A stretch of 64,000 nt of DNA from Escherichia coli (GTDB lineage: Bacteria; Pseudomonadota; Gammaproteobacteria; Enterobacterales; Enterobacteriaceae). Every line of letters starts with the position of its first letter. The first letter of the stretch is position 1. This document shows, one piece after another, positions 5,697 to 51,742 of the stretch. Made by a program: the position numbers and the translations under genes. The stretch lies in the NCBI RefSeq assembly GCF_050920415.1, contig NZ_CP169309.1; one strand, given 5' to 3'. A model generated the notes under the pieces. It searched no databases. It saw nothing but the letters and a program-made list of their open reading frames with translations, and had not been told where the DNA came from.

Positions 5697-7469
5697 ATGC
5701 GTACAGAATATTGTGGACAGCTCCGTTTGTCCCACGTGGGGCAGCAGGTGACTCTGTGTGGTTGGGTCAACCGTCGTCGTGATCTTGGTAGCCTGATCTT
5801 CATCGATATGCGCGACCGCGAAGGTATCGTGCAGGTATTTTTCGATCCGGATCGTGCGGACGCGTTAAAGCTGGCCTCTGAACTGCGTAATGAGTTCTGC
5901 ATTCAGGTCACGGGCACCGTACGTGCGCGTGACGAAAAAAATATCAACCGCGATATGGCGACCGGCGAAATCGAAGTGCTGGCCTCCTCGCTGACCATCA
6001 TCAACCGCGCAGACGTTCTGCCGCTTGACTCTAACCACGTCAACACCGAAGAAGCGCGTCTGAAATACCGCTACCTCGACCTGCGTCGCCCGGAAATGGC
6101 TCAGCGCCTGAAAACCCGCGCTAAAATCACCAGCCTGGTGCGCCGTTTTATGGATGACCACGGCTTCCTTGACATCGAAACTCCGATGCTGACCAAAGCC
6201 ACGCCGGAAGGCGCACGTGACTACCTGGTGCCTTCTCGTGTGCACAAAGGGAAATTCTACGCACTGCCGCAGTCTCCGCAGCTGTTCAAACAGCTGCTGA
6301 TGATGTCCGGTTTTGACCGCTACTATCAGATTGTAAAATGCTTCCGTGACGAAGACCTGCGTGCTGATCGTCAGCCTGAATTCACCCAGATCGATGTGGA
6401 AACCTCTTTCATGACCGCGCCGCAAGTGCGTGAAGTGATGGAAGCGCTGGTACGCCATTTGTGGCTGGAAGTGAAGGGCGTGGATCTCGGTGATTTCCCT
6501 GTAATGACCTTTGCGGAAGCAGAACGCCGTTATGGTTCTGATAAACCGGATCTGCGTAACCCGATGGAACTGACTGACGTTGCCGATCTGCTGAAATCCG
6601 TTGAGTTCGCGGTATTCGCAGGTCCGGCGAACGATCCGAAAGGCCGCGTTGCTGCTCTGCGTGTTCCGGGTGGCGCATCGCTGACCCGTAAGCAGATCGA
6701 CGAATACGGTAACTTCGTTAAAATCTACGGCGCGAAAGGTCTGGCGTACATCAAAGTTAACGAACGTGCGAAAGGTCTGGAAGGTATCAACAGCCCGGTA
6801 GCGAAGTTCCTCAACGCTGAAATCATCGAAGCCATCCTGGATCGTACTGCCGCGCAAGATGGCGATATGATTTTCTTCGGTGCTGATAACAAGAAAATTG
6901 TTGCCGACGCGATGGGCGCATTGCGTCTGAAAGTGGGTAAAGACCTTGGTCTGACCGACGAAAGCAAATGGGCACCGCTATGGGTTATCGACTTCCCGAT
7001 GTTTGAAGACGACGGTGAAGGCGGCCTGACGGCAATGCACCATCCGTTCACCTCACCGAAAGATATGACGGCGGCAGAGTTGAAAGCTGCACCGGAAAAT
7101 GCGGTGGCGAACGCTTACGATATGGTCATCAATGGTTACGAAGTGGGCGGTGGTTCTGTGCGTATCCATAATGGGGATATGCAGCAGACGGTGTTTGGTA
7201 TTCTGGGGATCAACGAAGAGGAACAGCGCGAGAAATTCGGCTTCCTGCTCGACGCCCTGAAATACGGTACTCCGCCGCACGCAGGTCTGGCATTCGGTCT
7301 TGACCGTCTGACCATGCTGCTGACCGGTACCGACAACATCCGTGACGTTATCGCCTTCCCGAAAACCACGGCGGCAGCGTGTCTGATGACCGAAGCGCCA
7401 AGCTTTGCTAACCCGACTGCTCTGTCCGAGCTGAGCATTCAGGTTGTGAAGAAGGCAGAGAATAATTGA
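5697..7469 (+). CDS. aspS: Aspartyl-tRNA synthetase
   Basis: 590 aa ORF with class II aaRS motifs, recognised as AspRS. Confidence 0.97.
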
Positions 7470-7470
7470 T

Positions 7471-7914
7471 ATGACTTATAAGCGTCCCGTTTCTATTCTG
7501 GTGGTTATTTATGCGCAAGATACGAAACGGGTGCTGATGTTACAGCGGCGTGATGATCCCGATTTCTGGCAGTCAGTAACCGGCAGTGTGGAAGAGGGGG
7601 AAACCGCGCCGCAAGCCGCCATGCGCGAAGTAAAGGAAGAGGTCACCATTGATGTTGTCGCTGAACAACTGACCTTAATTGACTGTCAGCGCACGGTGGA
7701 GTTTGAAATTTTTTCACATTTACGTCATCGCTATGCGCCGGGCGTAACGCGTAATACGGAATCTTGGTTCTGTCTTGCACTCCCGCACGAGCGCCAGATC
7801 GTTTTCACTGAACATCTGGCCTACAAGTGGCTTGATGCGCATGCTGCGGCGGCGCTCACAAAGTCATGGAGCAACCGGCAGGCGATTGAACAGTTTGTAA
7901 TTAACGCTGCCTGA
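7471..7914 (+). CDS. nudB: Dihydroneopterin triphosphate pyrophosphatase (Nudix)
   Basis: Nudix box [21 protein letters not shown]; position after aspS; exact start codon uncertain. Confidence 0.9.
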
Positions 7915-35097: not shown

Positions 35098-35439
35098 ATG
35101 ATGAAAAAAAGTATTCTGGCGTTTCTGTTACTCACCAGTTCTGCAGCGGCGCTGGCGGCACCGCAGGTGATTACCGTCAGTCGTTTTGAAGTGGGTAAAG
35201 ACAAATGGGCATTTAACCGCGAAGAGGTGATGCTGACATGCCGACCGGGCCATGCGTTGTATGTTATTAATCCGAGTACCCTCGTGCAGTATCCTTTGAA
35301 CGATATCGCACAAAAGGAAGTCGCCAGCGGGAAGACCAATGCCCAGCCCATTTCGGTGATTCAGATTGATGATCCTAACAATCCAGGTGAAAAAATGAGT
35401 CTGGCACCGTTTATAGAGCGAGCTGAAAAACTCTGTTAA
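35098..35439 (+). CDS. yebY: Periplasmic protein YebY (DUF2511)
   Basis: 113 aa with signal peptide; third gene of the yobA-yebZ-yebY cluster. Confidence 0.85.
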
Positions 35440-35467
35440 TTACCTAAAATAGCCTTTTGATTTCCAA

Positions 35468-35510
35468 TAAAAAACCGCCTCAGTTCTTTCACCAGAACAG
35501 GCGGTTTTTA
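35468..35510. terminator. Bidirectional rho-independent terminator (yebY on plus strand, RyeA on minus strand)
   Basis: Hairpin ccgcct...aggcgg flanked by an A-run and a T-run. Confidence 0.6.
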
Positions 35511-35750
35511 ACATTTAAGCTGATGACCACCACGCTTTTTATTGACCATTTTGCACGCAAACTGGAAAACCTGGCGTCGTCATCTATTCTTAAAGGGCAA
35601 GGCAACTAAGCCTGCATTAATGCCAACTTTTAGCGCACGGCTCTCTCCCAAGAGCCATTTCCCTGGACCGAATACAGGAATCGTGTTCGGTCTCTTTTTA
35701 TCTGTTAAAAGCCAGAAGCATTCCCTTCGCTGACTTTATAGTCAACCATA
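35470..35750 (-). ncRNA. ryeA: sRNA RyeA (SraC), antisense to SdsR
   Basis: Known antisense partner of SdsR in the pphA-yebY intergenic region; ends are approximate. Confidence 0.4.
35598..35700 (+). ncRNA. sdsR: sRNA SdsR (RyeB), RpoS-dependent
   Basis: Sequence gcaaggcaactaagcctgcattaatgcc ... ggaccgaatacaggaatcgtgttcggtctcttttt matches SdsR as recalled, with terminator hairpin and T-run at 35666-35699. Confidence 0.75.
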
Positions 35751-35833
35751 ACACACACTCTACTGTCTGAGTCCAGCGTTTTTTAACATTCTTGTTAAGA
35801 TTATGTGATCTTTAGCGCGGGAGGAAAATATTG

Positions 35834-36490
35834 ATGAAACAGCCTGCGCCCGTTTATCAGAGAATTGCGGGTCATCAATGGCGACATATCTGGCTTTCAG
35901 GTGATATACACGGATGTCTTGAGCAGTTGCGCCGCAAATTATGGCATTGTCGTTTTGATCCGTGGCGAGATTTACTTATCTCAGTGGGAGACGTTATCGA
36001 TCGTGGGCCGCAAAGTTTACGCTGTCTGCAGTTACTGGATCAACGTTGGGTTCGTGCGGTAAGAGGCAATCATGAACAGATGGCGATGGATGCGCTGGCA
36101 TCCCAGCAGATGTCTTTGTGGTTGATGAATGGCGGCGACTGGTTTATTGCGCTGGCAGATAATCAACAGAAACAAGCGAAAACGGCGCTGGAAAAATGTC
36201 AGTATTTGCCCTTTATTCTTGAAGTACACAGTCGCACCGGCAAACATGTTATTGCCCATGCCGATTATCCGGATGATGTTTATGAATGGCAAAAGGACGT
36301 CGATTTGCATCAGGTCTTGTGGAGCCGCTCACGATTACGTGAAGGCCAAAAAGGGCAGGGAATTACAGGTGCTGATCATTTCTGGTTTGGTCATACACCG
36401 TTGCGCCATCGCGTGGATATTGGCAACCTACATTATATTGATACCGGTGCTGTCTTTGGGGGAGAACTGACTCTTGTGCAATTGCAATAA
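35834..36490 (+). CDS. pphA: Serine/threonine protein phosphatase 1
   Basis: 218 aa metallophosphatase (GDIHGC, GDVIDRG, RGNHE). Confidence 0.9.
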   Translation: MKQPAPVYQRIAGHQWRHIWLSGDIHGCLEQLRRKLWHCRFDPWRDLLISVGDVIDRGPQSLRCLQLLDQRWVRAVRGNHEQMAMDALASQQMSLWLMNGGDWFIALADNQQKQAKTALEKCQYLPFILEVHSRTGKHVIAHADYPDDVYEWQKDVDLHQVLWSRSRLREGQKGQGITGADHFWFGHTPLRHRVDIGNLHYIDTGAVFGGELTLVQLQ

Positions 36491-50585: not shown

Positions 50586-51211
50586 AATTCATCCTGATTA
50601 TACGCACTGTCATGGTGCAACTGCTTCAAATTAAAACTCTGGTCTGACTTCAAATAATTATCATATTATTTATTTGCGTAACGGGATATCAGAAAAAGAT
50701 ATTTAGCCCATTAATTTATTAGGATGTTTACATCGGATTTGTGATTAAGCGTGTTATTATTTATTAGCGAAACGTTTCTCTCTTGATTTTTTTGCGCATT
50801 CATCAATTTTTCTTATTTTAAATTTACAATACCTTTGGCGATTGACTTCTCTTTGGGGTGATTGATAGCCGTTAACTGACTGTTTTATGAGAAAAAGTGA
50901 TATAACTTTTTATTCATTGCATAGCAGAAAATGTGATATTGCACGCACTATGTAATAACTTCTCCCATTGGCCTGGAACAACTGAACTTATTGAACTATG
51001 TTAGAAAATACGTCAGTTTAAGTATCTGCCTGAACTGGCAAGGTTAAGCACAATGATATATCGGCGCGTATTCCGTTGCATAAGTGTGCAAAAAAAGTGG
51101 AAGACGTATCGAGATTTGTGCGTCTGATCGAGACATGTTTAAAAATGGCTTGCCATAATTAACGTTGTATGTGATAACAGATTTCGGGTTAAACGAGGTA
51201 CAGTTCTGTTT

Positions 51212-51355
51212 ATGTGTGGCATTTTCAGTAAAGAAGTCCTGAGTAAACACGTTGACGTTGAATACCGCTTCTCTGCCGAGCCTTATATTGGTGCCTCATG
51301 CAGTAATGTGTCAGTTTTATCTATGTTATGCCTGCGGGCGAAGAAAACAATCTAA
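51212..51355 (+). CDS. yobF: Small protein YobF (co-transcribed with cspC)
   Basis: Translation [47 protein letters not shown] (47 aa), directly upstream of cspC. Confidence 0.75.
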
Positions 51356-51367
51356 GGAATTTTTCAA

Positions 51368-51577
51368 ATGGCAAAGATTAAAGGTCAGGTTAAGTGGTTC
51401 AACGAGTCTAAAGGTTTTGGCTTCATTACTCCGGCTGATGGCAGCAAAGACGTGTTCGTACACTTCTCCGCTATCCAGGGTAATGGCTTCAAAACTCTGG
51501 CTGAAGGTCAGAACGTTGAGTTCGAAATTCAGGACGGCCAGAAAGGTCCGGCAGCTGTTAACGTAACAGCTATCTGA
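51368..51577 (+). CDS. cspC: Cold-shock-domain protein CspC
   Basis: 69 aa with RNP motifs KGFGFI and VFVHF. Confidence 0.95.
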
Positions 51578-51623
51578 TCGAATCCACTGATCTGAAGTGT
51601 GAATACGCTTCAATCTCGCTATA

Positions 51624-51649
51624 AAGCCTCGTCGAATGCGAGGCTTTTT
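51624..51649 (+). terminator. Rho-independent terminator after cspC
   Basis: Hairpin aagcctcg-tcgaatg-cgaggctt followed by TTTT. Confidence 0.65.
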
Positions 51650-51742
51650 ACTTTGCTTTATCTTCGCTCCTGGCATTCGGATATTTGCCCGCCGCGTGAT
51701 TCGCGTTACACTTGCGGCCTTTAGTATCCTGCCGGAGTTGTC

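Follow-up and report, generated by a model that had tools for sequence, protein, structure and literature searches.

The sdsR/ryeA antisense small RNA locus in the yebY-pphA spacer of an Escherichia coli genome

The yebY-pphA spacer

The stretch of Escherichia coli DNA analysed here (64,000 nt of contig NZ_CP169309.1, referred to below as the window) contains a 394 bp non-coding spacer, at positions 35440-35833, that lies between two genes transcribed from the plus strand. The upstream gene (35098..35439) encodes a DUF2511 protein (Pfam, E=8e-45) and is yebY, the name that the same locus carries in an identical strain; it is the last gene of the yobA-yebZ-yebY operon and the upstream neighbour of sdsR. 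The downstream gene, pphA (35834..36490), encodes the serine/threonine phosphatase PrpA, matches the Pfam family Metallophos (E=1e-14), has its start where it is annotated in K-12 and in the identical strain, and is the downstream partner in the sdsR-pphA transcript. A 601-nt query that includes the spacer finds a match in 5425 of 5426 complete E. coli genomes and is 100% identical to E. coli strain 2013C-4282. The PGAP/RefSeq annotation of the latter strain shows yebY and pphA and no RNA gene in the spacer; a preliminary description of this DNA had noted that neither SdsR nor RyeA appears in the ORF track.

The curated record of K-12 MG1655 places two RNA genes between pphA and yebY, ryeA (b4432, 1923066..1923337, plus strand) and sdsR (b4433, 1923104..1923207, minus strand). 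Base-by-base alignment shows that the spacer of the window is colinear with that of K-12 throughout; the order yobA-yebZ-yebY, sdsR/ryeA, pphA is shared, and both mapped -10 boxes, the start sites and the terminators are present in each. The only differences are three substitutions (window versus K-12, C for T at 35723, A for C at 35517 and A for G at 35499) and an A/U-tract that is 1 nt shorter. All four lie within RyeA, outside its overlap with SdsR and off the mapped promoter elements, and the region 35518-35722, which holds the SdsR/RyeA overlap and the sdsR promoter, has no differences at all. The spacer is thus almost certainly the canonical E. coli sdsR/ryeA locus in intact form. As the preliminary description had said, this is a known, textbook locus that is worth annotating, and nothing in it departs from published knowledge. 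The sequence elements, the identity to K-12, the folds and the conservation described below were established in the present analysis.

Elsewhere, a scan of the whole window against Rfam shows a match to the cspA thermoregulator at 51192-51652 (plus strand, 135.7 bits, gathering score 78), which spans an ORF of 47 amino acids (51212-51355) and a cold-shock-domain ORF of 69 amino acids (51368-51577). We take these two ORFs to be yobF-cspC, and the match therefore belongs to a cspA paralogue, not to cspA itself.

SdsR and its promoter

The Rfam SdsR_RyeB model (RF00111) matches the plus strand at 35600-35699 over its full length (model positions 1-100; 114.4 bits against a gathering score of 38, E=3e-22), and the K-12 gene b4433 maps by alignment to 35596-35699 with 104 of 104 positions identical. 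The preliminary description had placed SdsR, including its terminator, on the plus strand at 35598-35700, and its ends agree with these to within 1-4 nt. The start mapped in K-12 by primer extension and RACE is 1 nt downstream of the annotated end, corresponding to 35597 here, and the 3' ends mapped there, +100 to +102, correspond to 35696-35698 (PMC6610125); SdsR (RyeB) is accordingly placed at 35597..35698, with a length of about 100-102 nt. Its predicted fold consists of three hairpins (-35.2 kcal/mol, z=-3.8). The gene is at least 99% identical in 5208 of the 5425 E. coli genomes that have the spacer. Its start lies directly downstream of yebY on the same strand (yebY stop at 35439), a position that has been stated to be universal for SdsR (PMC3333887).

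The sdsR promoter sequence, TCTATTCTTAA at 35583-35593, is unchanged relative to K-12 and is of the sigma-S type, with a C at -13 and an extended -10 element. Its core (35584..35593, plus strand) comprises the C(-13) at 35584, the -10 box TATTCT at 35585-35590 and a TAA extension at 35591-35593. TATTCT is exactly the K-12 sdsR -10 box that is swapped out by primer PM_SdsRR (Choi et al. 2019, PMC6610125), and the C-13 has been described as a conserved element of this promoter (PMC3333887). Purified E-sigma-S made only SdsR, as an RNA of about 100 nt (PMC6610125). Expression of SdsR in stationary phase is RpoS-dependent, and the RNA binds Hfq, in both K-12 and Salmonella (PMC6610125, PMC3333887); by analogy, SdsR of the present strain would be RpoS-dependent and Hfq-bound as well.

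The SdsR Rho-independent terminator (35665..35699, plus strand) was recovered by a terminator scan as an 11-bp stem with a 7-nt loop (35665-35693) and a T5 tract at 35695-35699, and it is leaky, with read-through into pphA demonstrated in K-12. The authors who mapped the K-12 SdsR 3' end concluded that it arises by Rho-independent termination (PMC6610125). When 111 distinct sequences taken from the matches listed are aligned, compensatory double changes are present at 3 of the 11 pairs of the terminator helix (G-C to C-G or U-A, A-U to G-C, and U-A to A-U or C-G). The invariance of the central SdsR hairpin in the same set is uninformative, since that hairpin belonged to the search pattern.

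RyeA and its promoter

On the opposite strand the Rfam SraC_RyeA model (RF00101) matches 35559-35703 over its full length (175.1 bits against a gathering score of 37, E=5e-41). The K-12 ryeA annotation (b4432, 272 nt) maps by alignment to 35737->35467 on the minus strand; it contains sdsR (35596-35699) entirely, and its 3' end consists of a hairpin followed by U6. The overlapping antisense pair that had been proposed for this spacer is therefore present as described. The RyeA (SraC) antisense RNA is placed at 35469..35737 (minus strand, about 269 nt), where it spans all of sdsR and its promoter, with its 5' end at 35737 and up to two alternative starts just upstream. The predicted fold has an energy of -92.1 kcal/mol (z=-3.9) and has the terminator hairpin at its end. 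The comparison with K-12 leaves sdsR without divergence, and ryeA with the three substitutions and a U-tract of 6 instead of 7 Us, which should still be enough.

The ryeA promoter (35745..35753, minus strand) is of the sigma-70 type, with a -10 box TATGGT at 35750->35745 and a TGn extension whose TG is at 35753->35752. This extended -10 element (TGtTATGGT, 35753->35745) is identical to that of K-12, lies downstream of the sdsR terminator and is directed at sdsR; the region marked out in the preliminary description, whose right edge is 35750, just takes in the -10 box. Primer PM_RyeAF substitutes ACCATA, which is plus strand 35745-35750 here, and the mutated -10 box abolished RyeA in K-12 (PMC6610125). 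Three adjacent starts have been mapped for RyeA in K-12, and the annotated 5' end is the one furthest downstream (Choi et al. 2019, PMC6610125). In vitro, ryeA was transcribed only by E-sigma70, and this purified enzyme made only RyeA in quantity, as an RNA of about 270 nt (PMC6610125). The K-12 RyeA 3' RACE ends range from +261 to +270, with +269/+270 in 12 of 20 clones, and were attributed by the authors to Rho-independent termination (PMC6610125). When mapped by alignment, +264 to +270 are the K-12 U-tract immediately after the hairpin, and the main ends are its last Us. For K-12, then, RyeA has been demonstrated by primer extension, RACE, Northern blot and in vitro transcription (PMC6610125); its abundance there is reciprocal to that of SdsR, and ryeA-ryeB is the top stationary-phase RNase III double-stranded RNA cluster of that strain (PMC7373196).

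The hairpin between yebY and RyeA

Thirty nt past the yebY stop codon lies a symmetric intrinsic terminator of the bidirectional type (35469..35509), in which an interrupted GC-rich hairpin is flanked by A6 and T5. The preliminary description had noted a hairpin at 35475-35505 with A- and T-runs on its two sides, and this is borne out: the A-run (35469-35474) and the T-run (35505-35509) enclose a lower stem made of the 5' arm CCGCCT (35475-35480) and the 3' arm AGGCGG (35499-35504), above which there are a 2-nt bulge, a 5-bp stem (35483-35487/35494-35498) and a loop (35488-35493). The outer part forms an 11-nt inverted repeat, 35470-35480 and 35499-35509, that is 100% complementary (AAAAACCGCCT / AGGCGGTTTTT). 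The hairpin is stable on both strands, with energies of -19.8 kcal/mol on the plus strand (z=-5.4) and -20.8 kcal/mol on the minus strand (z=-3.3), and none of 200 dinucleotide shuffles was as stable on either strand. At 35499, where the hairpin of K-12 has T.G (C.A on the RyeA strand), that of the window has a Watson-Crick pair, so that one pair is gained. The allele of the hairpin region carried by the window (35455-35525, with A at 35499, A at 35517 and A6 rather than A7) is a minority one, carried in exact form by just 55 of 5389 E. coli genomes.

The element was sought in other species by a strict detector that accepts a single hairpin upstream of SdsR with at least 4 A on its left, at least 4 T on its right and an energy of -12 kcal/mol or lower. 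(An earlier cross-genus hairpin picker was dropped; it picked windows with several hairpins and gave noisy counts.) Among the matches listed, the strict detector finds the A-run, hairpin and T-run in 69 of 71 Enterobacteriaceae-type loci and in none of 43 loci of Yersiniaceae, Pectobacteriaceae, Hafniaceae, Erwiniaceae and Shewanella. The hairpin ends 82-87 nt before the SdsR +1 in every case but one, an Intestinirhabdus locus in which the distance is 107 nt. There are 65 distinct sequences among the 69 elements; the outer AAAAACCGC...GCGGTTTTT is similar in them, and the inner stems and loops vary yet pair.

The claim that this one hairpin ends both RyeA and yebY stands for RyeA, on the basis of the K-12 RACE and in vitro results; for yebY the support is comparative. 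Because of its symmetric A6/T5 build, the hairpin very probably also terminates the yobA-yebZ-yebY transcript, giving the predicted yebY mRNA 3' end and shielding yebY from antisense RyeA. An A-tract serves as a U-tract only for a transcript of the opposite strand, and the conservation of the A-tract together with the T-tract therefore supports use in both directions. A-tracts can strengthen forward termination too, and for this reason we rate termination in the yebY direction as probable. The arrangement resembles the bidirectional intrinsic terminators found between convergent units, in that a single GC-rich hairpin flanked by A- and T-tracts lies between the yebY mRNA and RyeA; it differs from them in that published experimental support concerns the RyeA direction only, the yebY direction being predicted from sequence and conservation.

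Termination at the hairpin is probably not absolute. The K-12 ryeA/ryeB double-stranded RNA cluster S-155 (1,921,124-1,921,555) is 432 bp long, longer than RyeA (PMC7373196), and converts to window positions 35273-35703, about 166 nt into yebY, if its coordinates are those of U00096.2. This would mean that some transcription passes the hairpin in at least one direction.

SdsR loci in other taxa

A scan for the SdsR core, with one genome per species, gave at least 120 loci. Among the matches listed, 104 of 120 have a yebY gene in the same orientation 176-247 nt ahead of the SdsR core; most loci in which it was not seen end at the edge of the stored stretch, and five are from Shewanella and have no yebY. 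These five Shewanella loci (L032 9565-9667, L043 9643-9745, L060 6865-6966, L078 2041-2143 and L100 1590-1691) contain full-length SdsR_RyeB matches of 81-87 bits against the gathering score of 38, with compensatory changes in the terminator stem, and show neither a nearby yebY homologue nor a symmetric upstream terminator. Among the species loci in the matches listed, only those of Escherichia have a ryeA promoter sequence of the E. coli type in the place that it has in E. coli.

The SdsR/SraC pair of Salmonella enterica is similar in that SdsR is sigma-S dependent, binds Hfq and lies downstream of yebY, and in that the antisense SraC shares its 3' end (PMC3333887). The Salmonella sraC -10 box is about 35 bp further from sdsR, which results in a longer SraC (PMC3333887), whereas the window has the E. 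coli-type promoter. In some Salmonella serovars, acquired DNA at the ryeB terminator splits the locus; the corresponding site in the window is empty.

Alternative readings of the spacer

The 145-nt RF00101 model consists essentially of the SdsR reverse complement and some 40 further nt, so that a match to it mirrors SdsR conservation; taken alone, such a match is weak and poorly discriminating evidence and no proof of a RyeA gene. It could accordingly be argued that only SdsR is real and that the RyeA signal is its mirror image, with no discrete antisense RNA. This would fit the RF00101 scores of 145-172 bits in Yersinia, Hafnia and Izhakiella and of 51-65 bits in Shewanella (Rfam; L021, L050 and L061 are among these loci), taxa whose sraC has been reported as not conserved, promoter included (PMC3333887), and whose loci lack the symmetric terminator, the ryeA promoter side being kept only within Escherichia. 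It would also fit the poor conservation of sraC, above all of its promoter, which was found in only about half of the enterobacteria examined (Fröhlich et al. 2012, PMC3333887). The window, however, is from E. coli, and the case for RyeA in it rests on a promoter, start and terminator that are identical or nearly identical to those mapped in K-12, where the RNA has been demonstrated; in addition, the K-12 double-stranded RNA data need transcription of both strands. A locus with SdsR and no RyeA is thus very improbable here. The notion that the region encodes small proteins, instead of or besides non-coding RNAs, can be given practically no credence. Open reading frames do exist in the mechanical sense (63 amino acids at 35542-35733 and 50 at 35457-35609 on the plus strand, 38 at 35489-35605 on the minus strand), but all three start with TTG and run through the terminator hairpins, none has a Pfam match, the annotations of K-12 and of the identical strain contain none of them, and the conservation across genera tracks RNA helices with compensatory changes.

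The direction in which the hairpin at 35469-35509 acts deserves more weight. It might terminate yebY only, the RyeA ends being produced by exonucleolytic trimming back to a stable stem, or, in the mirror version, it might terminate RyeA only. The 8 of 20 K-12 RyeA RACE clones (about 40%) that end at +261/+263, on the 3' side of the stem (PMC6610125), are compatible with trimming, and the double-stranded RNA cluster reaches past the hairpin into yebY by our own coordinate conversion. The literature yielded no direct mapping of the yebY 3' end and no terminator for it, and the AZY operon paper mentions none. Purified RNA polymerase nevertheless yields RyeA of about 270 nt in vitro (PMC6610125), the A-run is conserved along with the T-run in the 69 of 71 Enterobacteriaceae-type loci, among the matches listed, and the hairpin is equally stable on either strand. 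We therefore consider a one-way terminator unlikely, and favour a hairpin that acts on both transcripts.

Integration at the sdsR 3' end

The half of the sdsR gene that contains the terminator also contains an unoccupied prophage attachment core (attB), 27 bp at 35674..35700, which overlaps the terminator loop, its 3' arm and the T-tract. In E. coli Z1323CEC0011 (NZ_CP148440.1) sdsR and pphA are separated by a prophage of about 43 kb, whose integrase, excisionase and RecET genes are at the end next to sdsR. The 27-bp core is repeated at both junctions (attL, L003 9376-9402; attR, L005 ~35348-35374), the attL copy being mismatched at the position equivalent to 35685. Of 5426 complete E. coli genomes, 228 share this attL junction, and about 4% have an interrupted spacer; a disruption of this kind is ruled out for the window by its colinear match to K-12 across the spacer. 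In the lysogens sdsR is rebuilt at attL with a 3' end supplied by the phage, and about 43 kb then separate it from the ryeA promoter and pphA. The position of the core in the terminator half of sdsR is like that of other phage att sites at the 3' ends of sRNA and tRNA genes, among them that of PhiW104, which has its att in the last 23 bp of Salmonella ryeB; the window differs from such occupied sites in having no prophage, and integration is seen in other strains and genera.

In about 30 of the 120 loci among the matches listed, a full-length or fragmentary homologue of the Z1323CEC0011 prophage integrase lies on the opposite strand, 69-290 nt past the SdsR terminator (among these loci are L007, L011, L049, L055, L057, L092, L102, L110, L112 and L125, from many genera). 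These genes are of the tyrosine type, point at sdsR and are often preceded by CCGAAAT-like repeats and a second ATTCGGTCTTTT. Since integrases are found beside sdsR in many genera, the 3' end of sdsR seems to serve as a hot spot for integration throughout Enterobacterales. We also note that in E. coli 2017-03-3CC an IS4-family (ISVsa5/IS10-like) element lies in the 5' stem-loop of SdsR and disrupts sdsR (L004 ~6306-7652), with a 9-bp target duplication, AACTAAGCC, that corresponds to window positions 35604-35612.

The yebY-side terminator is conserved at a constant distance from sdsR throughout Enterobacteriaceae, while the RyeA promoter side is not conserved and often replaced by elements with an integrase gene directed at sdsR. 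This raises the idea, which we hold to be speculative and rather doubtful, that antisense transcription through sdsR from any downstream source, be it the native ryeA promoter or the int gene of an island, is a general selected feature. If so, the A-tract of the hairpin would be kept to stop antisense transcription before it reaches yebY, and in lysogens an anti-SdsR RNA derived from the phage would take the place of RyeA. Nothing would change for the window, in which the native E. coli arrangement is present.

Read-through into pphA and proposed working of the locus

In K-12 most pphA transcription comes from the sdsR promoter by read-through, as found with LacZ fusions, primer extension and RNA-seq (PMC6610125), a point that the preliminary description left out. 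The segment from the SdsR terminator to pphA (35700..35833, plus strand), to which these K-12 data apply, has a single difference from K-12, at 35723. With pphA read from the sdsR promoter, the locus is therefore best viewed as an sdsR-pphA unit that is opposed by ryeA. A promoter-like site on the plus strand at 35423-35450 (CTGAAA, 16 nt, TAAAAT), inside the 3' end of yebY, corresponds roughly to the old heat-shock pphA promoter, which had been placed some 180 bp upstream of the sdsR promoter and proved essentially inactive (Choi et al. 2019, PMC6610125). A simple consensus scan for promoters and terminators reported only this site and the SdsR terminator, and missed the sdsR promoter, the ryeA promoter and the yebY/RyeA hairpin; the misses are not counted against these elements, because the promoters, of the sigma-S and extended -10 types, depart from a strict sigma-70 consensus and the hairpin is bulged.

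The positions of the RNA ends, the dependence on sigma factors, the read-through, the interference and the decay by RNase III are carried over from K-12 experiments, and the pair would be expected to behave in the present strain as it does there. On this model, the sigma-S promoter (C at -13, TATTCT) would start SdsR at about 35597 on the plus strand. Most transcripts would stop at the terminator (35696-35698) to give an Hfq-dependent stationary-phase sRNA of about 100 nt, a repressor of such targets as tolC, yhcB and, in Salmonella, ompD, and a fraction would read on to give pphA mRNA. The sigma-70 extended -10 promoter would start RyeA at about 35737-35739 on the minus strand, and this RNA would cross the whole of sdsR and its promoter in antisense orientation and end in the U-tract past the hairpin at 35469-35509. 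In growing cells RyeA would pair with SdsR, the duplex being degraded by RNase III, and convergent RyeA transcription would interfere with the sdsR promoter and so lower pphA as well; in stationary phase SdsR would prevail and RyeA would vanish. For K-12, SdsR and RyeA have been claimed to form an RNA-RNA toxin-antitoxin pair, in which overproduction of SdsR is toxic through repression of yhcB and is neutralised by RyeA (Choi et al.); the likeness of the present pair to that system is one of sequence identity of both partners.

Conclusions

SdsR is a core enterobacterial stress sRNA, and the copy in the window is a standard one from which nothing biologically new follows. The observations on terminator conservation, on the integration site in sdsR and on the SdsR-like genes of Shewanella add detail to published ones and open no new question. 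The automated RefSeq annotation leaves the spacer empty, and entries for sdsR and ryeA would fill it; with both genes annotated there, the mode of transcription of pphA and the conservation of the 394-bp spacer would be explained.
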